A stretch of 64,000 bases of DNA from Patescibacteria group bacterium (lineage in GTDB: Bacteria > Patescibacteriota > Minisyncoccia > Phycocordibacterales > EsbW-18), in the NCBI GenBank assembly GCA_038064475.1, contig JBBTTA010000003.1, forward strand, positions 24,985-88,984, in the 5' to 3' direction. This document shows, piece after piece, positions 3,386 through 59,941 of the stretch. The position numbers and the translations under genes were made by a program. Below the pieces are notes generated by a model. It saw nothing but the letters and a program-made list of their open reading frames with translations. It made no database searches and was not told the origin of the DNA. Position 1 is the stretch's first letter; each line of letters starts with the position of its first letter.

Positions 3386-3484
3386 GAATGCATGATGACA
3401 TACTTTCAGAAAACAAAAACAGCTGCCGACGGCAACTGTTTTTGTTTGTGTTAAACACTCGGTGTTTAACATCTGGTATTGTCC

Positions 3485-3512
3485 TCTGTTCTCTGTTCTC
3501 TGTTCTCTGTTC
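3485..3512. repeat. Heptanucleotide tandem repeat (tctgttc)x4 between the surface-protein stop and capA start
   Basis: Four perfect units read directly, flanked by partial units. Confidence 0.9.
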
Positions 3513-6346
3513 TAGATTTCCCTGATGTCCGGTGATCCCTTCTCCGAATCATCGAGAACACTTGTGCAGTGAATATCCCCGCCGGCGCCTGGGGCATAGT
3601 CGATACCACCGTCACCGTCATTATCGAACCCGTCTGAACATTCAGTGACATCGCCCCCTGTGTCGTCATCCCCTTGTTCGTTATCGTCCAGCGCATCATC
3701 ACAGTGTGGATCATCGTCATTGTCTCCATCAATACCGTTTACACCATCCCAATCAACAAAGGTATCTGCATCATTGTCAGTACCGTCATTACACTGTGGT
3801 GCATTTACAAGAATCGTTACACTGTCACTCACATCGCCACTTTTATCTCCAGCTTCACACGTAATAGTGAATGTTGTATCACTTGAAAGCACTCCGGAAT
3901 CTTCTCCTTTCCCGCTATCATCACGACTTCCTGACCATGGAGGAATACCTTCGCTTGCTACACACGTTCCAGATGTAATTTCATTTGATTCCCATGTAAG
4001 TTCAACAACCGAATCAGTCCCTACAGGAGTTGGGTTGTCTGATCCATTGATCTTAAGATCAACTTCTGGTCCTCCAGGTGGAGGTGGTGGTGGCTCGGCA
4101 GTATAGGTAATCGTGTAGGAGATTGTTCCTCCACAATCAAGTGCTTGCGACGATGCTGGTGCAATTGATGGAGGAAGGTAGCCCTCGAGCGTTGGCACAT
4201 TTGAAAGAGTATAGTTACCTGCAAGTTGATCTGTGTATGTCTCTGAACTTTGGTTTATGTTTTCAGTAATCGTTCCACTTGGTCCAGACAATGACCATGT
4301 TGTTGGCACGTTTGATGACACAACAACTGTTCCCGCAGAACATGCTGGTTCTTCTTCTTCCACAGTAACGTAACAATTTGATGAGACGAGTGCATCACTA
4401 CCGACGTTCACTGTCTTCGTTCCTGTAGCAGAATATGAAACGGTAAATGAGGCCCCTGATCCGCTTGCAGGTGTTCCTCCAATTGCTGACCATGCATATG
4501 TGCTGTTTCCTCCTCGCGCCGTAAGCGTAACTGGTTGATTAACACCTACGGGTGGCTGACCGGCAGGCAAACATTCTGGACGAACACGTACCAGCACATT
4601 ATCGTTTACCCCCTGTACTGGTGGACCATTGCGTATGGCGTCACCAAAATAGTTGCGTCGAACAGTTGCTGCTGACACGTTTTGTGTTCCACTGTCTGCA
4701 ATTACTGCTACCCCCCAAAGTGTGTCGTTAGGGCTTGCTCCTTTACTTCGTGTTGTATCTGCACCCGAAGATGTCCACGATAGTGTTGGCACAACACCGT
4801 AGTTCACGAGAATTGATGTGCCATTGTACGCAACACCCGGAGCACTTGCACCAAGTTGGAATGTAAGAGGTGGTGGACCCGATGTAATGTTTATCGTACA
4901 TGCACCCGTCGCACCTGTGTCCGTGCGCGTAAAGGTGACCGTACGTGATCCTGTTGTTGTAAATGTTTTAGTGACAGATGATGCAGAACCGCTTGAGCCT
5001 GATGGTAAAATACCTGTCGTCGGAGAAATTGCCCATGTATGTGCCGCACCGCCGCTTGCTGTGAATGTCACACTATCTACATCTTCTTGTGCCGCTGTCG
5101 GGCCAGAGCATGTTACGTCTGTTGCGGGACAGGTGAGTGATTGTGGATTGTTCGAAAAAGCAACCCATTCATTCGTGTCTCCTTGTACTTCACCTGTAAT
5201 GCTATGAGCTACTCCTGTTGAAACAAGGCCAGCAAGGCTCGATGAGAATGTACATGATGCACCAACACAACCCGTTGCACCAGCTGTTGTTGATTTTACA
5301 AGTGTTCCATCAGAATAAATTCGAATCGGACGTGGTGCTGTTGTATCAACATCATCACCCCAACCAGTTACGGTACAATTTGCAAATGGTGGTGTGAATG
5401 CGCCTGTTGGCAAATCCCCCCCTCCAACCTCCACATTACACGTACTTGATTGTCCGTTCCGTGTCACTGTAACAACTTTTGTTCCTATTGTTGAATACGA
5501 AGTTGTACATGTTCCTCCTGTTGCACATGAACCTCCCCCCCCTGTATTCCATGTGTAGTACGGAGACGTTCCTCCGCTTCCTCCTGATGCTGTCACAACT
5601 GTATTTTGATCAGGGTTAACCAGAGAAGGGTTTGCTGAACATGATAGTGCTGATGGAGCCGTCACATTCACCGTAACGCTTTTATTCACCGTACCCCCAG
5701 GGCCTGTACATGACATTGAAAATGTCGTTGCGGTAGTGAGATCACTTGATGCATCGTTTCCTCCTGTTGCACTTCCTGTTGAAAACCCCGCACCCCCCGT
5801 TGCTGTACATGATGTTGTGTTTGTTGATGTCCACGTTAACGTTGTTGGTGTGTCTGATGTTACAGGGTTTGGAGACGCTGTAAGTGTTGCTGTTGGTGCG
5901 GGAGGGGCTGTAACAGTAACATTCACGGTCACTGAACCCCCTCCTTCAGGTGATGGATCTTCGACACAGTCACGATCAACACCGATAGCAAAGAGTGTGT
6001 CGGTTGTTAACACATCCGTTGTATACGAAAGCGTTCCAGGGTTTGTTGTGTACGTCAGTGTATGCCCAACAGGGTATGTGCGAGAGATATTGTATGGCGT
6101 AGCACCCGTACTCGAGTTGGTGAACGTGACAGGAAGTGTTGATCCTGATGATACGGCGATTGAATACACCGCATCGCGATTTCCTGCGCTGTTGGCATAC
6201 GTCGTCCCATTGATTGTCATACTCATGATAGGGACCGCCATTCCTGAACATACCTCTAGGGCACGTGCCGTGTTTGGGACCGCCATCCACACAAGTGCCA
6301 AAAGCGTACCGATACCAAGTAACGAATTTCGTACAATAGATTTCAT
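3512..6346 (-). CDS. Large secreted repetitive surface protein (944 aa), Thr/Ser/Gly-rich Ig-like repeats, C-terminal Asp-rich Cys-containing Ca-binding-like tail
   Basis: N-terminal signal peptide MKSIVRNSLLGIGTLLALVWMAVPNTARA; long low-complexity body; C-terminus CNDGTDNDADTFVDWDGVNGIDGDNDDD...CSDGFDNDGDGGIDY. Confidence 0.75.
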   Translation of the reverse strand: MKSIVRNSLLGIGTLLALVWMAVPNTARALEVCSGMAVPIMSMTINGTTYANSAGNRDAVYSIAVSSGSTLPVTFTNSSTGATPYNISRTYPVGHTLTYTTNPGTLSYTTDVLTTDTLFAIGVDRDCVEDPSPEGGGSVTVNVTVTAPPAPTATLTASPNPVTSDTPTTLTWTSTNTTSCTATGGAGFSTGSATGGNDASSDLTTATTFSMSCTGPGGTVNKSVTVNVTAPSALSCSANPSLVNPDQNTVVTASGGSGGTSPYYTWNTGGGGSCATGGTCTTSYSTIGTKVVTVTRNGQSSTCNVEVGGGDLPTGAFTPPFANCTVTGWGDDVDTTAPRPIRIYSDGTLVKSTTAGATGCVGASCTFSSSLAGLVSTGVAHSITGEVQGDTNEWVAFSNNPQSLTCPATDVTCSGPTAAQEDVDSVTFTASGGAAHTWAISPTTGILPSGSSGSASSVTKTFTTTGSRTVTFTRTDTGATGACTINITSGPPPLTFQLGASAPGVAYNGTSILVNYGVVPTLSWTSSGADTTRSKGASPNDTLWGVAVIADSGTQNVSAATVRRNYFGDAIRNGPPVQGVNDNVLVRVRPECLPAGQPPVGVNQPVTLTARGGNSTYAWSAIGGTPASGSGASFTVSYSATGTKTVNVGSDALVSSNCYVTVEEEEPACSAGTVVVSSNVPTTWSLSGPSGTITENINQSSETYTDQLAGNYTLSNVPTLEGYLPPSIAPASSQALDCGGTISYTITYTAEPPPPPPGGPEVDLKINGSDNPTPVGTDSVVELTWESNEITSGTCVASEGIPPWSGSRDDSGKGEDSGVLSSDTTFTITCEAGDKSGDVSDSVTILVNAPQCNDGTDNDADTFVDWDGVNGIDGDNDDDPHCDDALDDNEQGDDDTGGDVTECSDGFDNDGDGGIDYAPGAGGDIHCTSVLDDSEKGSPDIREI

Positions 6347-7712: not shown

Positions 7713-8090
7713 CGCTTTTCCTTTCTGCCGTCAATGTGGCGGCGCTTGTCCTCCGTAGCTTTACGCGTAGGAGGAATAGGTATTTCGGTTGAACAACTAT
7801 AATTGCATTTCAAGGTTTTGACCTTGAAAACTAAGCTCTTCTTGTAAAAGAACTACCCATACCTAGTATAGTCACTGGGCAGAAGAAAAGTACCTCCTGT
7901 CAAGGTTTTCTGTACTAACCTGTGGACAATTTCTACGGGTTAAAACAAGGCCTAGTAAAGAGCCAAAATGAGGCTCGAGGAGGAGAATCCCCTTCTATTC
8001 CCCAACGTACCACGTCTTCCCAACCCCGTCAATGAAAACCAGTCTCTTGGGGGGTCTCTTACCTATCTCCCATCTTCCATACTCTATCTT

Positions 8091-8669
8091 CTATTGAGTC
8101 ACCGGCATTGTGTATGCAACCTCAACAACTGCTTTACCGCTCTGTTGCAATGTAAGTGTTATGTTTACTGTCTCTCCATTACGCTGTGCAGAGAAGTTTG
8201 TGACAGGAAGTTCATCAATTGATCCGTCTTTCAATACAACCCATCCCCCGTCAACCAAAAGTCGGCGGTAGCCATCAACAACCTCATGAAATTCAAGTGT
8301 CGACATGTAGCGCGCGACGGGCATCTGTTCACCGCGACCTGTGTATGCGATTGAGTAGCTTGTTTCTATTGCTGCACTTGGTTCAAGGAGTAATTCTTGT
8401 GGAAATCCCGCAACAAGTGAGCCTGCAGGTGCATGCGTAATCGCATTCCCCTCCTCGTCATACGTTACCCCATCGTCTTTCCCTTTACCTAAAAACCAAA
8501 GGGCTCCGACAATGAGAAGAATAATGACAATAATACTCACTAATACAGATGAGCTTTTTCGATGAGACTCTGGAGCCATTCCCCCGCCCATTGGTGTCGT
8601 GGTATTCATGCCTCCGTCTGTAAGAGGTGTCGTCATTGGACTTGTGTGGCGCATGTCTTGCATTCCCAT
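8091..8669 (-). CDS. Hypothetical membrane-anchored protein
   Basis: 192 aa, TM segment VLVSIIVIILLIVGALWFL, no recognisable domain. Confidence 0.55.
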   Translation of the reverse strand: MGMQDMRHTSPMTTPLTDGGMNTTTPMGGGMAPESHRKSSSVLVSIIVIILLIVGALWFLGKGKDDGVTYDEEGNAITHAPAGSLVAGFPQELLLEPSAAIETSYSIAYTGRGEQMPVARYMSTLEFHEVVDGYRRLLVDGGWVVLKDGSIDELPVTNFSAQRNGETVNITLTLQQSGKAVVEVAYTMPVTQ

Positions 8670-8902
8670 ATATAAAAAGTGTTAGTAGTAGCTAGTATGA
8701 ATGGTAGCGGAATGTATCCCCCCAAACAACGCATTTTGTTGATAACTATTAGTACCGCAGTGTGACTTAAGTGGTTCATTGACAAAAAACTCTAGGGAAG
8801 TACTGTGGTTCTAGAAATGGTTCTCTGTCAGAAATCCTCATATTCGCGGGACATACTGTTTCGCGAAAAAGCGCCAACGGCGCAGAAGGAAGGAGTCCCA
8901 AA

Positions 8903-14018: not shown

Positions 14019-14068
14019 GGTCTAAATTACAAGCTTGATTCGTGATTCTTAATTCTTGCTTCTATTCT

Positions 14069-14898: not shown

Positions 14899-16428
14899 AT
14901 GTCATTACAACTAGCATTCTTCCTCCTCGCAGTCACAGGAGTCGTTGGTGTTGGTTTGGGTTACTTCATCCGTTACCTCGTCGGACTTGGTAAGCGTGGA
15001 TCTGTCGAACTCGAAATCAAACGAAAACTTCTTGAGACACAGGAACAAGCAAATAAAATAATTCAGCAGGCAGAAGAAGAGGCGGCACAGACGATAGAGA
15101 TAGGTCGCGAAGAGTTGCGCGAACGCGAAGAGAAGGCCCTTAAGACAGAAGAACGCCTCATTAAAAAGGAGGAGCTTTTGGATAATCGTCAGCAAGACAT
15201 CGACGCGTCTGCAGAAGAACTGAAAGAAAAGGCTGAAGATATTGAAACACTTCGCGAAGATACCGAACACGTGAAGGCACAACACGAAGAGGCACTCGTG
15301 CGTGTTGCTCGTCTCACTGAAAACGAAGCACGTGAGATGTTGTTGCGTGAAATTGAAAAGAAACACGGAGAAGATCTCGTCATGCGCATGCGCAAACTTG
15401 AAGTTGGTGGCCGTGAACAACTTGAAAAGAAAGCGCAGGATATTCTGGTGACTTCAATTCACCGACTCGGCAACAATGTGTCATCAGACATCATGTCGTC
15501 GACAATCGAACTCCCTTCTGAAGACGTCAAAGGAAAGATCATCGGAAAGGAAGGACGCAACATCAAAGCGTTCGAGCGCGCATCAGGTGTTGAAGTGGTT
15601 ATCGACGATACACCAGGCTCAATTATTCTTTCCTCATTTGATCCTGTGCGTCGTGCAGTTGCCAAAATGGCCTTGGAGCGCCTCATAAAAGACGGGCGCA
15701 TCCAACCAGCGCGTATTGAAGAAGAAGTTGAAAAGTCACGTCAGGAAATCAATAACATCATTAAAGAAAAGGGTGAGCAAGCAGCGTACGAAGCTGGTGT
15801 GTTCAATCTTGATCCACGCATCATTTCAATTCTTGGACGACTTCACTTCCGTACAAGCTACGGACAAAACGTTCTCGCCCATTCGGTTGAGATGGCGCAT
15901 CTTGCCGGCATGCTTGCAGAAGAACTCGGAGGTGATGTTGCTATTGCGAAAGCAGGAGCACTCGTGCACGACATCGGAAAAGCAGTTGATCACGAAATTC
16001 AAGGCACACATGTTGAAATCGGACGTCGCATCTTGCAAAAGTTTGGTGCTGACGAGAGCATAGTGAAAGCGATGCAAGCGCATCACGAAGAATATCCGTA
16101 CGAAACAATTGAATCGATTATCGTGCAGGTTGCTGATGCTGTGTCAGGTTCTCGCCCCGGTGCACGACGTGACACCGTTGAAAACTACTTGAAACGCTTG
16201 GCTGACCTTGAAAATATTGCGAACTCATTTGAAGGCGTTGATAAGTCATACGCCATTCAAGCAGGACGTGAAATTCGTATCTTTGTTCGCCCAGAACAAG
16301 TGACTGACATCGAGGCACAAAAACTTGCGCGCGATATTGCAGGAAAGATTGAAGCGGAATTAAAATATCCGGGAGAAATAAAAGTAAACGTCATCAGAGA
16401 AAACAGAGTGATAGAGTACGCGCGATAA
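14899..16428 (+). CDS. rny: Ribonuclease Y
   Basis: 509 aa; N-terminal TM helix, coiled-coil, KH domain (GKIIGKEGRNIKAFE), HD domain (HSVEMAHLAG...LVHDIGKA). Confidence 0.9.
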   Translation: MSLQLAFFLLAVTGVVGVGLGYFIRYLVGLGKRGSVELEIKRKLLETQEQANKIIQQAEEEAAQTIEIGREELREREEKALKTEERLIKKEELLDNRQQDIDASAEELKEKAEDIETLREDTEHVKAQHEEALVRVARLTENEAREMLLREIEKKHGEDLVMRMRKLEVGGREQLEKKAQDILVTSIHRLGNNVSSDIMSSTIELPSEDVKGKIIGKEGRNIKAFERASGVEVVIDDTPGSIILSSFDPVRRAVAKMALERLIKDGRIQPARIEEEVEKSRQEINNIIKEKGEQAAYEAGVFNLDPRIISILGRLHFRTSYGQNVLAHSVEMAHLAGMLAEELGGDVAIAKAGALVHDIGKAVDHEIQGTHVEIGRRILQKFGADESIVKAMQAHHEEYPYETIESIIVQVADAVSGSRPGARRDTVENYLKRLADLENIANSFEGVDKSYAIQAGREIRIFVRPEQVTDIEAQKLARDIAGKIEAELKYPGEIKVNVIRENRVIEYAR

Positions 16429-23562: not shown

Positions 23563-24192
23563 TTAGTAGTAGATTCCGCGCAAAGCATTAATCCATGCAC
23601 TAATGAGCGATTGAAACGGCTCTGAAGGACCGTCATAAATGTCTCGAATCGGATCTCCAGTTCCTTGTATTCCTATTCCTCCACCACCTCCACCACCTCC
23701 ACCACCTCCACCACCTCCTTCTCCAGGGTCGGGGCCACCGTCTGCTGGTGGTTCCTCCGGTATCTCTTCACGCCATTCTTCTGTACATGTCCGATTCAAA
23801 AACCGGCTATTTGCACCAAAAAGATCGTGGGTTGGTCGAAGCTGTCCCCCTGTGCCATCTACTTCTGTACAAATACCTGTGTCTGCTTCACAAAGGTATG
23901 CATCCTCAAGAACGCCATTATCATTGCGTTTCAATGGACATACGGTTCCTCTCTGCCACACATACTCTCCTGACCGGTTCTTTGAACAGATGAAAGATGC
24001 CTCGAAACGCCCCGGGCCAACTGTCGTTGTTCCACACTGCACATCACAAAACTGTGCAGGCTCACACGAGTCTCCCACAAATGGGTTGGGGTATGGATAC
24101 CTACTGAAATCACCTGATGACTGAACTTCAATGGGCGCGGACGCAGCGAGAAACACGATAAGTGCAGAAATGGCGAGTAAGATTTGTTTCAT
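23563..24192 (-). CDS. Secreted Cys-rich protein with poly-Gly tract
   Basis: Signal peptide MKQILLAISALIVFLAASAP; 12 Cys; PGEGGGGGGGGGGGGGG run. Confidence 0.6.
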   Translation of the reverse strand: MKQILLAISALIVFLAASAPIEVQSSGDFSRYPYPNPFVGDSCEPAQFCDVQCGTTTVGPGRFEASFICSKNRSGEYVWQRGTVCPLKRNDNGVLEDAYLCEADTGICTEVDGTGGQLRPTHDLFGANSRFLNRTCTEEWREEIPEEPPADGGPDPGEGGGGGGGGGGGGGGIGIQGTGDPIRDIYDGPSEPFQSLISAWINALRGIYY

Positions 24193-24270: not shown

Positions 24271-25185
24271 TTAATTCGAACGCTTCCCGTGGAAATTCTT
24301 GTGTACTTCTTTCAAGTGCCTATCAGTCACGTGCGTATATATCTGTGTCGTGGCGATATTGGCATGTCCCAAAAGCGCCTGAACGCTTCTGATATCTGCA
24401 CCGTTGCCCAAAAGGTCGGTTGCGAACGAATGACGAATGATATGCGGTGTCACTTTTTTGCTGATACCTGCTTTAATCGCGTACTGCTTCACCAAGCGTT
24501 CAACCGAGCGGGGAGTGAGGCGCAAATCTGAGGAATTTTTCGCATTTTTGCCAAGTTGTGCGAATAACGCATCATCGGTATCCGCTCGTTTGTCCAGATA
24601 TTTCTTTACCGAAGTTTTAGCCACATCTGATACGAACACAACACGCACTTTGTCGCCCTTTCCGCGCACCGAAAACTCCCCGCGTGAGAAATCGATGTCG
24701 CGCGACAGAGACACAATCTCTGATACACGCATGCCTGTTGAGAAAAGAAGTTCGAGAAGCGCTTTGTCGCGAAGGGATTGAACATCTTCACCTGACGGCT
24801 GTGCGAGTAGTCGATCAAGGTCTGTGTGTGAGATAAGATCGAGATCTCGATCACCGGTTTTCGCGAGTTCAATAACTTCAGGTTGTACAGTCTTGATATT
24901 TTTTTTACGAAGATATTTGAGAAATGCTCGAAGCGCAATCAAATAATAGTTTTGTGTTTTCTTTTTGAGCGTATTGTCTGTTGTCTGTTGTCTGTTATTT
25001 GTTGTCTGTCTATTAAGCCACAAACGGTAGTCGCGAATAATTGATTCTGTAATGTCCGTTGGGGAAGAGATTTTCGCGTATTCAAAAAAGCGCGTAAGGT
25101 AGCGGTCGTAATTTTCGATCGTCTTAATCGAGCGTCCGCGTTCGATTTCGAGATATTCTAGAAACTCTCTTTTGTACTTTTCCAT
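24271..25185 (-). CDS. Tyrosine site-specific recombinase, XerC/XerD type
   Basis: Start at MEKYKREFLEYLEIERGRSIKTIENYDRYL; catalytic region RHSFATDLL...LLGHANIATTQIYTHV. Contains an in-frame heptamer repeat (see 24974..25008). Confidence 0.8.
   Translation of the reverse strand: MEKYKREFLEYLEIERGRSIKTIENYDRYLTRFFEYAKISSPTDITESIIRDYRLWLNRQTTNNRQQTTDNTLKKKTQNYYLIALRAFLKYLRKKNIKTVQPEVIELAKTGDRDLDLISHTDLDRLLAQPSGEDVQSLRDKALLELLFSTGMRVSEIVSLSRDIDFSRGEFSVRGKGDKVRVVFVSDVAKTSVKKYLDKRADTDDALFAQLGKNAKNSSDLRLTPRSVERLVKQYAIKAGISKKVTPHIIRHSFATDLLGNGADIRSVQALLGHANIATTQIYTHVTDRHLKEVHKNFHGKRSN
24974..25008. repeat. Heptanucleotide tandem repeat (ttgtctg x4 plus variant ttatttg) inside the recombinase CDS
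   Basis: Read directly; encodes QTTNNRQQTTDN linker on the minus strand. Confidence 0.9.
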
Positions 25186-34018: not shown

Positions 34019-34087
34019 CCTCGCCCACAGAAAGTTCCGCGACTTTCTGTGGGCTTTCTGTTTCTGAAGGTTTAACCTTCATTTTTT

Positions 34088-34122
34088 GTTTTCTGTTTTC
34101 TGTTCTTTGTTTTCTGTTCTTT
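34088..34122. repeat. Heptamer tandem repeat (gttttct/gttcttt, 5 units) upstream of the UvrD/PcrA gene
   Basis: Read directly. Confidence 0.85.
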
Positions 34123-34153
34123 GTTACATGCTACATGTTTCGCGTTTTCTGCT

Positions 34154-44115: not shown

Positions 44116-44733
44116 ATGGATGAACAAGATTTTAATAAAGTAATACAAAACCGTTTAGCTGAACTACCAGAAAGTGTTCGGTCGGCAATTGCACATATAA
44201 ATTACCCTCAACAAGTTCAAAACCTGATGCAGCGCTTTCAGCTACGGCTCGATCAGGCGGGAATCGTTGATAGAGAAATTATGCTTGTTCTTCTAGGCAT
44301 GGAGCACCCCGACATACTCCTCAATAATCTTGTGCGTGAAGGCGGAATTGCGCGTGATGTTGCAACACAAATAGTTAATGATCTGAATGAAAATATTTTT
44401 AAAGCAATCAAACAAGATCTTGTGGAGACGTACACAAAAGATCAACTGGTTGAAGAAATTTTGGACCCAAATAAATCGAGAACGGTTTTGCCCGATAGAT
44501 CTGCCACACAAAGTACACCAAGCCAATCTCCTCAAGTGACGCTCGCACAACCAACCCCAACTCAACCAACCGGTATTGATCGTACGATGCCAAATGACAT
44601 TGCAAAAACAAAGCTTGAACAAAGCTTTCGTATTCCTCCTCAAACAACAACAGTTCCTCTGCATGGCGATATCCCAAAAATGACACCCCCCGCACGCCGC
44701 ACACTAGATCCCTATCGAGAACCCACGCAGTAG
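44116..44733 (+). CDS. Hypothetical protein
   Basis: 205 aa, Pro/Thr/Gln-rich C-terminus. Confidence 0.45.
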   Translation: MDEQDFNKVIQNRLAELPESVRSAIAHINYPQQVQNLMQRFQLRLDQAGIVDREIMLVLLGMEHPDILLNNLVREGGIARDVATQIVNDLNENIFKAIKQDLVETYTKDQLVEEILDPNKSRTVLPDRSATQSTPSQSPQVTLAQPTPTQPTGIDRTMPNDIAKTKLEQSFRIPPQTTTVPLHGDIPKMTPPARRTLDPYREPTQ

Positions 44734-44804
44734 GAGATGGAAGATAGAATATAGAAGATAGGAAAACTAAAATATATTTGATGTGTGTCGTGTAGAGTTT
44801 TTAG

Positions 44805-45182
44805 ATGGAAACTCCACTTAAGGATTTTACAAGCTTACGAGTGTGGCAACACTCTCGTCATTTTGCTGTAAAGATTTATAAAATTACCAGCGCATTTCCT
44901 CGAGATGAGATTTTTGGTTTAACGAGTCAACTTAGGCGTGCTTCCGTATCAATTGCTTCAAATATTGCGGAAGGTTTTGGCAGATTTTCGTTTAAAGAAA
45001 AAGTTCAATTCTACAATATTGCTCAATCCTCACTAATTGAAACGCAAAATCAGCTTATAATTTCAAAAGATGTCGACTATCTCCCTGAAAAAGAGTTTCA
45101 TATGGTATACAATGAGTCTGTGCTTATAGCGAAGATGTTATCTGCCCTCGTTAGGTCGTCTCGATCAAAATTTGGCTCTTAA
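44805..45182 (+). CDS. Four-helix-bundle protein (TIGR02436-like, the family often found in 23S rRNA intervening sequences)
   Basis: 125 aa; LRVWQHSRHFAVKIYKITSAFPRDEIFGLTSQLRRASVSIASNIAEGFGR pattern; flanked by inverted heptamer-repeat blocks 44735..44770 and 45186..45214. Confidence 0.7.
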   Translation: METPLKDFTSLRVWQHSRHFAVKIYKITSAFPRDEIFGLTSQLRRASVSIASNIAEGFGRFSFKEKVQFYNIAQSSLIETQNQLIISKDVDYLPEKEFHMVYNESVLIAKMLSALVRSSRSKFGS

Positions 45183-45217
45183 CCCATCTTCCATATTCCA
45201 TCTCCTATATCCAACTC

Positions 45218-48315: not shown

Positions 48316-48828
48316 ATGGACGAGGAACAGAAATCCCAAAGGCGAATATCGAACGTAACCGCCGTATTGATGGTTATTGTTGCGGTGGTTCTTGATCTTA
48401 TAAACCTCATTCCCGTTGTTGGTGTTTTGGTTGGTAATATCCTCGCTCTTTTAATATTCGGCTTGTGGTATCTCATGCTTGGAATCCCAATTATGGGGGC
48501 ACGGCAATTTGCACGGTGGGGAACAAGTTGGCTTATCGATACCATATCTGTTGGTTATCTCCCCGGCATTACGCTCGGTGCTATACTTATTATTGTAGTA
48601 ACACGTACCGAGGATAAGACCGGAATAAGCCTTATTGATAAGGTAAAGCCAACTTCGGCAGGAACGCTCAAAAACGCTCGGCGTGCGGCAAACCCAGAGA
48701 GAACATTACAAGCACGAGATCGATTGGAACGCCGATTGGCGCGCCGAGCACAAGAAAGTGAGGGTGCGGCAACAAAACCAAAAGAGCACCCCCAAATCAA
48801 AGACATTAATTACCCCAAGGCGGCATGA
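48316..48828 (+). CDS. Membrane protein, hypothetical (T4SS cluster)
   Basis: 170 aa, 3-4 TM helices, basic C-terminal tail. Confidence 0.5.
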   Translation: MDEEQKSQRRISNVTAVLMVIVAVVLDLINLIPVVGVLVGNILALLIFGLWYLMLGIPIMGARQFARWGTSWLIDTISVGYLPGITLGAILIIVVTRTEDKTGISLIDKVKPTSAGTLKNARRAANPERTLQARDRLERRLARRAQESEGAATKPKEHPQIKDINYPKAA

Positions 48829-49562
48829 CGTACGAATCAAGAATCAAGAATCAAGAATCAAGAATTTGCGTTTTGTTTTTAGCGTGCTTCTTGTTTCTTG
48901 CTTCTTGCTTCGTTTTCGCGCGGAGCGCGATAGCACAGAATACTGCAACAGTTGATTTGGTATGGGAAGCAAACTCCTACGTGCCACCGTTCTATAAAGG
49001 TAAAGCCTTAACAACAACCGATGGAGATGTTGATGTATATGCATTTGTTCCAAGTACGTTTGGCAATCCGCTACGCGCAACATATACATGGGAATTAAAC
49101 AGCCAAGTACTTGGCAGTCTCTCGGGTGTAGGTAGATCATCATTGCGTGTTTCAGGTTCTCCTTTTATTGATGATCGTGCAATTAGAGTGCGTGTTGTTG
49201 GAGAGAATGGTCGTGAGGGTTTTGGATATGTACGCATTCCGGCGGTAAAACCAACTATCATGGTCTATGTTGATTCACCACTTGCTGGTGTGCAATTTGG
49301 AAACGCTGTGGTTACTCGTTTAGAAGCACAAACAGAGACCGATCTTACACTAACCGCATACCCATACTTCTTTTCAACATCAGATCGCAATGAAAATCTT
49401 TCATATACATGGAATGTAAACGGTGTTGCGTCAGAAACACGAGGACCAACACTTGTTGCGCGCTCTGAAACAACAGGGACGTCAACGGTAAGTGTTGAGA
49501 TAAACAATGTTTCTAAGATTCTTGAGCGTGCTTCGAAGATATTCTCTGTCGTTCTACAATAG
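48825..49562 (+). CDS. Secreted hypothetical protein with heptamer repeat in its 5' coding end
   Basis: ATGA overlap with the previous gene; n-region MTYESRIKNQESRI followed by h-region CVLFLACFLFLASCFVFA. Confidence 0.55.
   Translation: MTYESRIKNQESRICVLFLACFLFLASCFVFARSAIAQNTATVDLVWEANSYVPPFYKGKALTTTDGDVDVYAFVPSTFGNPLRATYTWELNSQVLGSLSGVGRSSLRVSGSPFIDDRAIRVRVVGENGREGFGYVRIPAVKPTIMVYVDSPLAGVQFGNAVVTRLEAQTETDLTLTAYPYFFSTSDRNENLSYTWNVNGVASETRGPTLVARSETTGTSTVSVEINNVSKILERASKIFSVVLQ
48834..48868. repeat. Heptanucleotide tandem repeat (gaatcaa)x4 plus variant, inside CDS codons 4-14
   Basis: Read directly; the ATG is at 48825. Confidence 0.9.
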
Positions 49563-49601
49563 AGTTATAAGAATAGAAAACAGAGAACAGTATATACTCA
49601 A

Positions 49602-50486
49602 ATGATAAATTTCAAATTTCAAATTTCAAAAAAAGCTCCTTCTTTCTTTTTGTTATTTGTTATTTGTTATTTGTTATTTGTGATTACGCTCCCTGTGTTT
49701 GCACAACAAAACCCACCAACGGTAGATCTCCTTGTTAAGGATTTACCGGGAATTGGCCCTGCTACAGATCTTAAGGGCTTTCTTCAGGGAATATTTAAAC
49801 TCACACTTGGTATTGCGGTCACCGCCGCTATAGCAATCATTGTGTGGAATGGTATTCGCTACATGGTGAGCGATGCGGTTGGTGGAAAAGAGGATGCAAG
49901 GAAATGGATTGGAGAAGCGTTGTGGGGATTGGTACTCGCATTTTCTGCTGTGCTTATTCTTTCAACAATAAACCCACAGCTTACACAATTTGATTTTCTT
50001 ACAACACTGCAAGAAGTGCGTGAAGCTGCTGGTGGTCCGCCGGGGGGTCCTCCCCCTCCTCCACCTCCACCAGGAGATACTCCTCCGGACGGACAATTTA
50101 CCTATCAACCTAGAGTAGCTCCACAACGACTACATGCGTCTTCTCAACTAGAAACATTATTAAGTTGTATTGCAAACAGGGTTCCGGGAAATGTTGGAGA
50201 GATTTCGTCAATATCAGACGAAATGATTACGTCGGGTCAAAGAACCTTTGAGGAATGTGCCGCCGGTGGACAATCTGTTGGATGTGCCCACAGAGCGGGT
50301 TCGCTTCACTATGGTGGATTATTTTGTGTTGGACAGTCATATGCTGTCGACTTTGGAGACGAACAAAATATGAATGTTCTTGGTGATGCGGCCGTATTGT
50401 GTAACCCAAACGTTGCAGTAATAAACGAAGGAAATCATGTGCACATAAGTTTAGGAGATAGTGCGGGTTGTGGACCAGGAAACTAG
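49602..50486 (+). CDS. VirB2/TrbC-like pilin-type membrane domain fused to a C-terminal LAS/M15-like zinc-peptidase-like domain
   Basis: Signal peptide, two hydrophobic helices (LTLGIAVTAAIAIIVW; ALWGLVLAFSAVLILS), Pro-rich linker, C-terminal CAHRAGSLHYGG...AVDFGD...NEGNHVHISLGD (SxHxxG / AxD / HxH pattern). Confidence 0.45.
   Translation: MINFKFQISKKAPSFFLLFVICYLLFVITLPVFAQQNPPTVDLLVKDLPGIGPATDLKGFLQGIFKLTLGIAVTAAIAIIVWNGIRYMVSDAVGGKEDARKWIGEALWGLVLAFSAVLILSTINPQLTQFDFLTTLQEVREAAGGPPGGPPPPPPPPGDTPPDGQFTYQPRVAPQRLHASSQLETLLSCIANRVPGNVGEISSISDEMITSGQRTFEECAAGGQSVGCAHRAGSLHYGGLFCVGQSYAVDFGDEQNMNVLGDAAVLCNPNVAVINEGNHVHISLGDSAGCGPGN
49641..49675. repeat. Heptanucleotide tandem repeat (ttgttat)x4 plus variant ttgtgat inside the signal-peptide coding region
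   Basis: Read directly; encodes LLFVICYLLFVI. Confidence 0.9.
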
Positions 50487-53106: not shown

Positions 53107-54474
53107 ATGCATCAAGGACCAGAAACAATTGATATCCGTACCCTTTGGAAAGAAGTTCTTGATGGTATCGAACCTACCATCTCAAAAGCTATCTTCAAGA
53201 CATGGTTTAAAGACACCCATATCGTCAAAATAGAGGATGGTACGGTGTTTGTGGGTGTACCTCACATGATGAGTAAGGATTGGCTTTCTACGAAGCTGCA
53301 TAAGCCTATTTTGAAGGGTTTACGGGAACATTCTGATAGTATTCGGGCCGCAGAATACATTATTTCCACAAAAGCCCCTGATGCTTCCCAGTCATCGGTT
53401 ATTATTCCTTCATACTCAAATGGCGTAGGGGAACTACCTCTCAAAGATCTCTATATCAATAAACTTGATAACCTCAATCCTCGCTACACATTTGACTCTT
53501 TTATTGTTGGATCATTCAACGAACTCGCACACGCAGCGGCACAAGCAATCCTTGAGCGTCCCGGAGCTCGCTACAATCCATTTTTTGTCTACGGACAAAC
53601 AGGCCACGGAAAAACACACCTTATTCAAGCTCTGGGAAATGAAATAAAGAAGCGAAATCCTGAAAAAAGAGTGTACTACGTTTCGTCAGAGCGCTTTGCA
53701 CAGGATTTAGTGAATGCAATTCAACTCAACACGGTGGGTGCCTTCAAAGAAAAGTACCGAAAGTATGATGTCTTCATTATGGACGACGTACAATTCATTT
53801 CAAATAAAGAAAAAACACAAGAAGAGCTTTTTCATTTGTTTAATGAGATTTACGATAGGAACGGTCAGATTATTTTTTCTTCAGATAGACACCCAAACTA
53901 CATTCCAAGCATCGCAGATCGTCTTAAGTCGCGTTTTAACGCAGGTATGACAGTTGATATTCCTGCTCCTGACTCTGAATCTCGTGTTGCAATTATTCGT
54001 TCAAAAGCAGCGGAAAACAATGTAGTTCTTTCAGATGAGGTTATTCAACAAATTTCAACAACAATCGATGGCAATATTCGTGAGTTGGAAGGAATTGTGA
54101 ACTCGTTGATTGCTCATATGATTTTGAAGAAGAAAGATTTGACGGTGTCTGAAGTAAAAGAGGCAATAAAGAACAATATCAAACCAAAACGTCTTGTCTC
54201 TGTGAAGGATGTGGTAAAAATTGTGTCTGGTTTCTATAACCTCGATGAGGAAAGTATCTATAAAAAGAGCCGTAAAAAGGAGGTTGTGAAGCCTCGTCAA
54301 GTAATTATGTATCTCCTTCGTGAAGACTATAGTCTTCCGTATCCTGCAATTGGTGAGAAGCTTGGTGGTCGCGATCATACCACAGTGATTCACTCATACG
54401 AGAAGGTGTGTGAGGATTTAAAAACAGATCATCAGTTGGAACAAGAGATCACACAGCTCCGTGGAATGCTGTGA
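53107..54474 (+). CDS. dnaA: Chromosomal replication initiator DnaA
   Basis: 455 aa; Walker A GQTGHGKTHL, sensor/box VII motifs, C-terminal DNA-binding domain HTTVIHSYEKV. Confidence 0.95.
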   Translation: MHQGPETIDIRTLWKEVLDGIEPTISKAIFKTWFKDTHIVKIEDGTVFVGVPHMMSKDWLSTKLHKPILKGLREHSDSIRAAEYIISTKAPDASQSSVIIPSYSNGVGELPLKDLYINKLDNLNPRYTFDSFIVGSFNELAHAAAQAILERPGARYNPFFVYGQTGHGKTHLIQALGNEIKKRNPEKRVYYVSSERFAQDLVNAIQLNTVGAFKEKYRKYDVFIMDDVQFISNKEKTQEELFHLFNEIYDRNGQIIFSSDRHPNYIPSIADRLKSRFNAGMTVDIPAPDSESRVAIIRSKAAENNVVLSDEVIQQISTTIDGNIRELEGIVNSLIAHMILKKKDLTVSEVKEAIKNNIKPKRLVSVKDVVKIVSGFYNLDEESIYKKSRKKEVVKPRQVIMYLLREDYSLPYPAIGEKLGGRDHTTVIHSYEKVCEDLKTDHQLEQEITQLRGML

Positions 54475-59128: not shown

Positions 59129-59144
59129 AAAGAAATAACAGATA

Positions 59145-59225
59145 ACAAAGAACAGATAACAAAAAACAAGGAACAAGACAGATTTTTCTGTTCTTTATTC
59201 TCTATTCTCTGTTTTTTGTTTTCTG
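59145..59225. repeat. Imperfect inverted block of heptamer-like repeats (aacagat/aacaaag ... tctgttc/tctattc) between yebC and ruvC
   Basis: Read directly; the two halves are approximate reverse complements. Confidence 0.7.
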
Positions 59226-59227
59226 TT

Positions 59228-59755
59228 TTAGGCTGCATTGGTGTAGATGTCTTGAATATCGTCGTGGTCGTGAAGGTCTTCCATAAGTGCACCAAGCTTT
59301 TCTTCGTCATCTTCCGAAAGTGTAACGGTGTTGTTTGGTGTGTACCCACCCTCGGCGTTTTTAGTGAAGGCCCACATGACAGATCCTTGTGTACCAAGTG
59401 ATGTGTTGTGTTCTGACAAGAGATGTTTTATTTCTTGCACCGTACGATTGTTGTTGTCGGTGAGTCCGGTGATGATGAGGGCACAGCCTCCGGGTCCGTA
59501 TGCTTCATACAGTACTTTTTCATCTGCCTGTGCACCCATGGCGGACGCAACAGCACGTTCAATATTTTCTTTTGGCATGTATGCCGCTTTTGCGTTTTCA
59601 ATTGCAGCACGAAGCATGGGGGAGTTTATGTCGCCTTTTGCAAGACGAGCCTCAACACGAATAAGTTTTGCGTATTTGGTGAAAAGCTTACTACGTTTTG
59701 CATCAGTCGCACCCTTCTTTTCTTTAATTTGTTTCCACTTATTGTGACCTGCCAT
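59228..59755 (-). CDS. YebC/PmpR family DNA-binding regulator
   Basis: MAGHNKWKQIKEKKGATDAKRSKLFTKYAKLI canonical N-terminus. Confidence 0.85.
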   Translation of the reverse strand: MAGHNKWKQIKEKKGATDAKRSKLFTKYAKLIRVEARLAKGDINSPMLRAAIENAKAAYMPKENIERAVASAMGAQADEKVLYEAYGPGGCALIITGLTDNNNRTVQEIKHLLSEHNTSLGTQGSVMWAFTKNAEGGYTPNNTVTLSEDDEEKLGALMEDLHDHDDIQDIYTNAA

Positions 59756-59941
59756 AAAAATGAGAATTAGGAATTAAGAATCATGAATCAAGGAAAATCC
59801 CATACCGTCATTCCGCCCTCTAGGCAGGTAAAGTATATCAAAATACACAAAAGGCGGAGAGGGCGGGGTTGCAAAAATATAGTCGTTTCACTCCTTATTT
59901 TTGGTAAGACGAAGGCCCGCTTGAGGCGGGCCCACTGAACA

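Follow-up and report, generated by a model that had tools for sequence, protein, structure and literature searches.

The neuO gene of Escherichia coli K1, carried by the CUS-3 prophage, undergoes phase variation through an (AAGACTC)n array in its 5′ coding region; the array has 3–53 repeats, commonly about 20, and the gene is OFF in 65.6% of complete genomes (PMC13001214). Here, we examine heptanucleotide arrays at the starts of two adjacent genes of a type IV secretion system (T4SS) cluster in a Patescibacteria/Paceibacteria metagenome-assembled genome (MAG) from Hainich groundwater well H41. The genes, one for a 245-residue secreted protein and one for a 294-residue TrbC/VirB2-type pilin, lie in a 64-kb stretch of contig JBBTTA010000003.1 (hereafter, the window), whose initial annotation took the repeats for phase-variation switches. 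We favor a different reading, at a rough probability of 0.55, namely that the tracts are lineage-specific heptanucleotide microsatellites that have been tolerated and co-opted as signal peptides, with a 5′ hairpin resulting from inverted pairing. Like neuO, these genes carry repeats of a seven-nucleotide unit in the 5′ part of the coding sequence, need the frame to be kept for a full-length product, and translate the repeats as heptad peptides. Unlike neuO, the tracts have only 4.6–4.7 units, no polymorphism was found, related arrays are all ON, and each tract can pair, as a hairpin, with a further array complementary to it.

The opa genes of Neisseria carry (CTCTT)n repeats in the hydrophobic core of the signal peptide. 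The likeness lies in a pyrimidine-rich repeat, with a unit that is not a multiple of three, encoding the hydrophobic signal-peptide core of a surface protein. The opa tracts, however, are longer and demonstrably variable, and they are not known to have a complementary partner upstream or to have spread across the genome into housekeeping contexts, whereas the arrays described here are shorter, have the complementary partner, and are spread through the genome, housekeeping contexts included.

A broader class is formed by the long simple sequence repeats (SSRs). According to the summary in PMC4679880, Mrazek et al. (2007) found heptanucleotides to be the most abundant of the prokaryotic long SSRs with units of 5–11 nt, scattered sporadically over the phylogeny; such arrays are numerous, lie mostly outside coding sequence, and are proposed to come from polymerase slippage (Mrazek, Guo and Shah 2007, as summarized there). 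The present arrays share with this class their number beyond chance, their location mostly outside coding sequence, and their sporadic distribution, but many of them are hairpin-forming inverted pairs and several are translated. The short tandemly repeated repetitive (STRR) heptamers of cyanobacteria are an example of long SSRs. Another is the TAACTGA direct repeat of marine Beggiatoaceae, cyanobacteria, and Bacteroidetes, present in 2–6 copies a few nucleotides upstream of start codons in spacers poor in Shine–Dalgarno sequences (MacGregor 2015, PMC4679880). These repeats precede unrelated genes, essential ones among them, with rare coding cases at protein termini, and the system uses essentially one unit, almost only as direct repeats, with a single indirect pair (PMC4679880). 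Arrays in the window likewise lie directly upstream of start codons in a Shine–Dalgarno-poor genome. In contrast to TAACTGA, they are built from a variety of units (GAATCAA, AAATTTC, TTNTYTG, and others) and often form inverted pairs; nor do one or a few units dominate, as they do in TAACTGA or STRR1–3.

Two further systems involve hairpins. Rickettsia palindromic elements (RPEs) are in-frame selfish palindromes, and the window resembles them in that hairpin-forming sequence is tolerated in frame within genes. With the intervening sequences (IVSs) of 23S rRNA, the window shares a PF05635 gene in the loop of a long stem. It differs from both in that no family of near-identical copies is seen, the arms are tandem heptamer arrays, and the hairpins lie in an mRNA operon instead of an rRNA. 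Heptanucleotide switches within coding regions, repeats within signal peptides, and heptamer SSRs spread over whole genomes are all already known. Within the literature searched, three things appear to be new, as follows: heptamer arrays of this kind in Patescibacteria, an inverted pair in which each arm codes for one half of a signal peptide, and the association of heptamer arrays with PF05635 cassettes. A literature search for SSR phase variation in the Candidate Phyla Radiation (CPR) yielded only a hypervariable gene with an in-frame 9-mer, from a Gracilibacterium (PMC6851277).

The two array-bearing genes sit where the initial annotation had placed them, in a T4SS cluster. Their upstream neighbors encode PrgI, a TraC-like protein, and a VirB4-like ATPase, the relatives of the VirB4-like protein are Paceibacteria, and the pilin scores above the Pfam cut-offs for TrbC/VirB2 and T4SS_pilin (PF04956, 30.8 bits against 27.9; PF18895, 28.9 bits against 26.6). 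It has the further attributes of a TrbC/VirB2 T4SS pilin, that is, a signal peptide and two hydrophobic helices besides the Pfam match and the T4SS gene cluster, and NCBI names it a ‘TrbC/VirB2 family protein’. For the 245-residue protein, 151 homologues were found, and its position in the cluster is constant in the relatives examined. Its AlphaFold model (predicted local distance difference test score, 90.8) has a signal helix followed by two Ig-like β-sandwich domains, with Ig/FN3/PKD-like matches in the PDB. The N-termini of both proteins look like normal signal peptides with cleavage motifs AIA|Q and VFA|Q, as in about 80 orthologues, and judging by these sequences both products are secreted.

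Whether the start codons lie upstream of the repeats, as the initial annotation supposed, bears on everything that follows, and they do. The ATG at 48825 overlaps the upstream stop codon as ATGA; the same 4-nt overlap is present in the related loci L018 and L101 (ATGA) and L093 (GTGA), and the TrbC profile alignment begins at pilin residue 8. Starts downstream of the repeats were considered and are ruled out by the conserved overlap and by the in-frame alternatives, which are all TTG codons within the hydrophobic core; for the pilin, a downstream start is also ruled out because the protein has no signal peptide without the array-encoded segment. As read from the DNA, then, the arrays of both genes are translated. 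A Shine–Dalgarno-like core (GGAG, GAGG, or AGGA) precedes only 6 of 50 gene starts on the contig (the window together with the segments L104 and L105). Many of the 50 have a TAnAnT −10-like box 4–12 nt ahead of the ATG, including TATATACT before the pilin ATG, and this suggests that leaderless or very short-leader mRNAs may be widespread.

In the gene for the 245-residue protein, the GAATCAA tract that had been described as four units from codon 4 is indeed perfectly periodic (array 1a, Table 1). In the pilin gene, the tract given as four TTGTTAT units plus TTGTGAT is likewise present: TTTGTTA is perfect to position 49681 and is followed by the variant TTGTGAT (array 2b). What the initial annotation missed is that neither gene has a single tract, because each carries a second array (1b and 2a, respectively). 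In both genes, the A-rich array comes first, and its imperfect reverse complement, the T-rich array, begins after a further 14–24 nt; the former specifies the signal peptide's polar or charged n-region and the latter its hydrophobic core. By computed RNA folding, the signal-peptide coding segment of each gene, about 80 nt, forms a long periodic hairpin.

The arms of the 1a/1b inverted repeat (48832–48860 and 48885–48913) are 29 nt long and 86% complementary. The minimum free energy (MFE) of the hairpin is −33.9 kcal/mol (z = −2.6), a stability equaled by 3 of 200 shuffled sequences, and the arms pair better with one another (cis duplex, −26.5) than in trans (mean, −12.4). The 2a/2b inverted repeat has 34-nt arms (49599–49632 and 49647–49680), 76% complementary and 14 nt apart; its hairpin has an MFE of −29.6 kcal/mol (z = −4.8), with equal stability in 0 of 200 shuffles. 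The spacer between the pilin arrays (49626–49635) holds CAAAAAAAG, which includes the classic −1 frameshift heptamer A_AAA_AAG, though not in the phase of the ATG frame. Loss of one AAATTTC unit would bring the heptamer into phase, and a −1 ribosomal slip there would then restore the pilin frame; the first AAATTTC unit of the gene is also in phase as an X_XXY_YYZ motif.

Altogether, there are four inverted pairs in the window, with arms 76–86% complementary and RNA folding z-scores of −2.6, −4.8, and −6.0. For 13 hairpins from seven genomes, the arms pair far better in cis than with other loci, except with loci of a shared unit family. Several heptamer arrays are unpaired. No Rfam family matches the hairpins at threshold; the only hits are sub-threshold and resemble microRNA precursors. 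That such pairs can supply signal peptides has a simple basis. Since 7 and 3 have no common factor, all three frames of a heptamer array give one and the same cyclic heptapeptide, and it follows that an A-rich array always yields polar residues and the complementary T-rich array hydrophobic ones. The polar/hydrophobic outcome is therefore a consequence of the genetic code.

Table 1. Coordinates of arrays, hairpins, and genes in the window.
Feature	Positions	Strand	Remarks
245-residue secreted protein gene, signal peptide + two Ig-like β-sandwich domains	48825–49562	+	ORF (open reading frame); ATGA start/stop overlap
Array 1a, (GAATCAA)x4.6, perfect	48834–48865	+	Encodes ESRIKNQESRI, polar n-region of signal peptide
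Array 1b, (CTTGCTT/CTTGTTT)x3.9	48885–48911	+	Tandem Repeats Finder (TRF); encodes CFLFLASCF, hydrophobic h-region; imperfect reverse complement of 1a
Periodic imperfect hairpin of arrays 1a + 1b	48832–48913	+	6-bp helices split by single mismatches; 24-nt loop region
294-residue TrbC/VirB2-type T4SS pilin gene, Pro-rich linker + Cys-rich C-terminal extension	49602–50486	+	Pfam; NCBI name
Array 2a, (AAATTTC)x3.4, perfect	49607–49630	+	Encodes NFKFQIS, n-region
Array 2b, (TTTGTTA)x4.7, perfect, + variant TTGTGAT	49649–49685	+	Starts at codon 16; encodes LFVICYLLFVI, h-region
Periodic imperfect hairpin of arrays 2a + 2b	49599–49680	+	Stem includes ATG at 49602
PF05635 (23S_rRNA_IVP, four-helix bundle) gene, 44805–45182, + flanking inverted arms	44729–45216	+	Pfam E = 3.8e-38
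Intergenic array (AGAACAG)x4.9	3480–3513	−	Ends 7 nt upstream of PGA_cap-family ATG
Degenerate array (CTTGATT)x4.3	14034–14063	+	Ends 5 nt upstream of clpP ATG
In-frame 36-nt array, CAGACAA-type, in xerC/D-like tyrosine recombinase gene	24974–25009	−	Encodes NRQTTNNRQQTTDN; N-terminal SAM-like domain
Array (TTTTCTG/TTCTTTG)x5–6	34082–34125	+	Upstream of UvrD/PcrA helicase gene
Inverted heptamer arrays (AACAGAA-type/TTCTGTT-type) filling yebC-ruvC spacer	59133–59229	−	T-rich arm ends 4 nt before ruvC ATG
Degenerate array (CTTGATT)x4.3	59763–59792	−	Ends 7 nt upstream of yebC ATG

Heptamer arrays are a property of the whole window. Among its perfect tandem repeats (at least three copies, units of 4–12 nt), five of seven are heptamers, and TRF finds 10 period-7 arrays with a score of at least 40 where each of 100 composition-preserving block shuffles has none. 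The initial annotation was right, then, to call the arrays unlikely by chance; it erred in singling out the two T4SS genes, as similar arrays lie upstream of clpP, yebC, ruvC, and pcrA/uvrD and inside the gene for an xerC/D-like recombinase, which a single-unit slip in its array would inactivate. Six of the 10 strong arrays are intergenic, the remainder being in signal peptides or a protein loop, and four end 4–7 nt upstream of start codons (clpP, yebC, ruvC, and the PGA_cap capsule-synthesis gene). The pair that fills the yebC-ruvC spacer, outside the T4SS cluster, folds with an MFE of −34.4 (z = −6.0). At least five distinct units occur in the 64 kb, with no one or few units being dominant; two loose families, CTTGATT-like and TTNTYTG-like, can be made out among them. 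Elsewhere in the window, six signal peptides have no arrays.

The contingency-locus claim of the initial annotation divides into two parts. A repeat with a unit that is not a multiple of three does lie in the translated 5′ region, and the frame-shift arithmetic is correct: when any one of the four arrays gains or loses one or two units in simulation, the gene is left without an in-frame ATG, which only changes of three units keep. The second part, length polymorphism with ON and OFF alleles, did not find support. We compared contigs from four sequencing projects, which were retrieved through the flanking genes, so that the sample is not biased toward the reference allele. No tract-length variants were found at either array, all the spanning contigs having the same unit number; these are consensus assemblies that record the majority allele of a nearly clonal population. 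Searches by exact protein match, run from the gene on either side, brought up no length variants either, and there were none in the 90%-identity protein clusters, which have one and two members. A gapped pattern scan of Joint Genome Institute (JGI) metagenomes, a collection that does not contain the Hainich data, returned no matches. In about 80 kb of contig sequence compared there are about eight mismatches (not counting two contigs, which carry an indel or are chimeric at one end), and with a population so nearly clonal and assemblies of the consensus kind, the power of the length-variant test is low. Intergenic arrays, which are free of any frame constraint, are equally invariant: the yebC/ruvC arrays are identical in 9 of 9 contigs, and the array at 3480 in 4 of 4. 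Among the genomes compared, no OFF allele was found, as 11 of 11 5′-coding arrays (in the window and in L018, L028, L067, L076, L089, L093, and L098) leave the ORF uninterrupted.

Several k = 31 Logan contigs start or stop exactly at the borders of pure-repeat 31-mers, which implies a longer array of that unit somewhere in those samples. We set these contig ends aside as proof of length heterogeneity, since they show only that pure-repeat k-mers have extra neighbors in the k = 31 graph. One contig, L111 (SRR32696686), has a 1-nt deletion in an A-run at the equivalent of window position 53646, which splits dnaA into two ORFs; this is probably a low-coverage assembly error. Arrays lie at two surface-protein genes, but likewise near clpP, yebC, ruvC, and uvrD and in the xerC/D-like coding sequence. 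An evolved on/off switch at both genes is possible; as a contingency mechanism, phase variation is unproven and stands as a latent possibility.

The comparison set consists of 80 related loci fetched through VirB4 and placed on a VirB4 tree. Counted over 82 loci in all, heptamer arrays turn up in no fewer than four separate clades (the window with L098 and L018; L093, L089, L067, and L076; L021 and L028; L077) and absent from about 68 other loci, a patchy, lineage-specific distribution. Across the array-bearing clades, the same places of the T4SS cluster carry arrays, with units that differ between species. These places are the C-terminal tail of a 205-residue protein, the C-terminus of PrgI, the region upstream of the TraC-like gene, and the signal peptides of the 245-like protein and the pilin. 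Most orthologues of the two genes have ordinary signal peptides with no 5′ structure (about 60 of 62 for the pilin, and most of those for the 245-residue protein), and a 5′ RNA structure conserved across all orthologues is rejected, as the folding z-scores center on 0. In L018 (H41-bin157_1, from the same well), the orthologue lacks array 1a and has a signal peptide 14 residues shorter, the extension in the window being in frame. The same genome has (GACCAAC)x14–16 translated in the C-terminal tail of a 225-residue protein, and its PrgI and YidC have heptamer-encoded C-terminal tails, …QRPTTDN and …QQPTTNN (8061–8175, 8804–8829, and 15309–15332).

The closest counterpart of the pilin arrays is found in the sister species L098, where (ATTTCAA)x3.0 and (TTTGTTA)x3.6 head the 245-like gene, not the pilin gene, in the same reading frame as in the window pilin. 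This points to gene conversion or transfer of the module, or to concerted evolution. The array-bearing segment of the window pilin substitutes for the first 33 nt of the signal-peptide coding sequence of the L098 orthologue and is no clean insertion. A scan of JGI metagenomes for the AAATTTC...TTTGTTA module returned one match, from the L098 species and with equal copy number, and the module as a widespread cassette is ruled out by that single match. Differences among the L098, L099, and L100 assemblies, examined as candidate repeat variation, proved to be scaffolding N-gaps.

Upstream in the cluster, a PF05635 gene lies between inverted arms (44729–44762 and 45183–45216) that are 34 nt long, 79% complementary, and heptamer-periodic (TAGAAGA-type). 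A PF05635 gene within a stem loop with inverted, often heptamer-periodic arms is also found in L018 (8800–9302), L076 (5714–6276), L093 (4390–4820), and L089 (8343–8899), and the arrangement occurs further in L022, L046, and L052. Its site varies: in the window and L098, the gene precedes PrgI and is encoded on the + strand; in L018 and L101, it is encoded on the − strand and separates PrgI from the TraC-like gene. At the PrgI/TraC junction of L067, there are arms without a PF05635 gene. In structure, the gene with its arms looks like an IVS-style cassette within an mRNA operon.

Palindromes of another sort occur nearby. On the same contig, about 1.4 kb and 0.4 kb past the left end of the window (L104, 13626–13665 and 14643–14686), two type-IV-pilin-like genes of a T2SSF/type IV pilus cluster have perfect GC-rich palindromic duplications with stems of about 20 bp, in frame in their prepilin leaders. 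The encoded peptides, SQRLGLWPRDRVSG and TWRLSLQGFGGLASKG, directly precede the G|FTL(V/P)EL motif. Hairpins in the cleaved leader peptides of pilus subunits thus recur in this genome without heptamers. A similar palindrome pair in L105 (4854–4909) is intergenic.

Three other explanations can be set against the microsatellite reading, with which, as with each other, they are not mutually exclusive. If the tracts are true contingency loci, slipped-strand mispairing would switch the pilin and its secreted neighbor ON and OFF in subpopulations and so adapt them to hosts or phages. Perfect translated tracts with a unit that is not a multiple of three, in which changes of one or two units abolish the in-frame ATG, are what such loci would have; both products are exported surface or pilus proteins, the architecture is like that of proven switches, namely neuO with its 5′-coding heptanucleotides (PMC13001214) and opa with CTCTT repeats in its signal-peptide core, and signal peptides of the same two genes carry arrays in other clades. 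The contigs of several samples that break exactly at pure-repeat 31-mers fit as well, but are equally explained by another locus or organism with the same unit. We nevertheless judge switching unlikely. The tracts have a mere 4.6–4.7 units, such arrays also flank or enter housekeeping genes, no length variants were seen in the spanning contigs of the four projects or in protein clusters, unconstrained intergenic arrays are just as invariant, and the ON state of 11 of 11 arrays contrasts with neuO, with its 3–53 repeats and 65.6% OFF. Still less probable, in our view, is that the hairpins are small mobile palindromic elements of the RPE or 23S rRNA IVS kind, ORF-less kin of the PF05635 hairpin that would insert at boundaries between cistrons and, where they happen to be in frame, be read as leader or signal peptides. 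This would account for PF05635 genes with heptamer-periodic arms here and in at least seven relatives, at differing junctions and on differing strands; for the arms without a gene at the PrgI/TraC junction of L067; for the AAATTTC/TTTGTTA module belonging to one gene in the window and to another in L098; and for unit families that recur at several loci within a genome. The in-frame GC-rich palindromes in the prepilin leaders of two type-IV-pilin-like genes of the same contig, the 14 extra signal-peptide residues of the 245-residue protein relative to L018, and the lack of arrays in most orthologues also agree with it. Yet no near-identical hairpin copies are present in the 82 kb of contig examined, where the units vary from locus to locus and hairpins have no more sequence in common than their unit family, nor was there any sign of terminal signatures, target-site duplications, or a transposase. 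The pilin segment replaces 33 nt of the L098 sequence rather than being cleanly inserted, and tandem periodicity is a product of slippage, not of transposition.

Least probable of all, we think, is a selected cis-regulatory RNA, that is, a 5′ hairpin acting, for example, as a 5′-terminal stabilizer, as a translational gate over the AUG, or as an RNase III site that sets subunit stoichiometry, the heptamer periodicity being merely how the stem was built. The folding is far from random (z = −4.8 for the pilin, with the AUG in the stem, and −6.0 for yebC-ruvC), arm complementarity is kept although the units differ between species, and the hairpins lie at cistron boundaries. In addition, the −10-like TATACT/TATATA 4–6 nt upstream of the pilin ATG suggests a leaderless or nearly leaderless transcript whose 5′ end would be the stem. 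These observations must be set against the lack of 5′ structure in about 60 of 62 pilin orthologues and most orthologues of the 245-residue protein, so that there is no conserved requirement, and against the several unpaired arrays and the Rfam matches, which are only sub-threshold and miRNA-precursor-like; complementary arms can, moreover, come from template switching without selection. It is tempting to combine these ideas and to propose that the inverted heptamer arrays of some Paceibacteria are a class of their own, expandable and possibly mobile IVS-like elements, PF05635-bearing or empty, which settle at cistron boundaries and have been co-opted as signal peptides, the hairpin and the slippery tracts together giving graded or ON/OFF control of pilus subunits. 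We regard this combination as quite improbable, though a shade less so than a regulatory RNA by itself.

Our preferred reading, that of tolerated and co-opted microsatellites, can be laid out as follows. The arrays would arise and be homogenized by replication slippage and intrastrand template switching, an origin suggested by their match to the heptanucleotide-dominated long-SSR class of scattered bacterial lineages. Purifying selection would spare them only at harmless sites, namely spacers, protein termini, loops, and cleaved signal peptides, and the spacer arrays would often come to lie directly upstream of start codons in a genome poor in Shine–Dalgarno sequences. Within signal peptides, the arrays may have been co-opted as the working export signal, and the 5′ hairpin probably influences, for both genes, how translation starts or how stable the mRNA is. 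A slip of one unit would turn either gene off, so that the tracts would be a dormant liability or, at the very most, a switch that works at a low rate.

Several points weigh against this reading. The mutational origin by slippage or template switching is something we infer and have not observed. The AAATTTC/TTTGTTA pair is on a different gene in L098 with its reading frame unchanged, so that simple in-situ growth is no explanation, and module transfer or gene conversion is hinted at. Arrays recur at the same T4SS cistron boundaries in several clades, and this recurrence could reflect selection for function rather than mere tolerance. Both tracts are perfect, as expected if they were recently active or are selectively maintained, and the longer array implied by the k = 31 contig ends could be a length variant of this very locus.

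If the preferred reading holds, a repeat with the look of a textbook contingency locus can be part of a microsatellite habit of the entire genome, and it follows from such a habit that SSR-based predictions of phase variation in uncultivated bacteria need both the genomic background and read-level evidence. Inverted A-rich/T-rich heptamer pairs, which give a polar and then a hydrophobic segment in any frame, would be a possible route to new signal peptides. The arrays extend to the CPR the biology of heptanucleotide long SSRs, so far that of cyanobacteria, Beggiatoaceae, and Burkholderia. Should switching or hairpin control prove true, it would provide the first case in which repeats control the expression of the pili with which these episymbionts are thought to attach and to take up DNA.

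Two other repeats in the window are ordinary coding repeats, unlike the heptamers. In-frame 9-nt repeats at 50040–50072 make up the proline-run linker of the pilin (GGPPGGPPPPPPPPG), and an in-frame 9-nt repeat at 23678–23718, read on the + strand as (CCTCCACCA)x4.6, lies within a − strand gene for a secreted protein (23563–24192).

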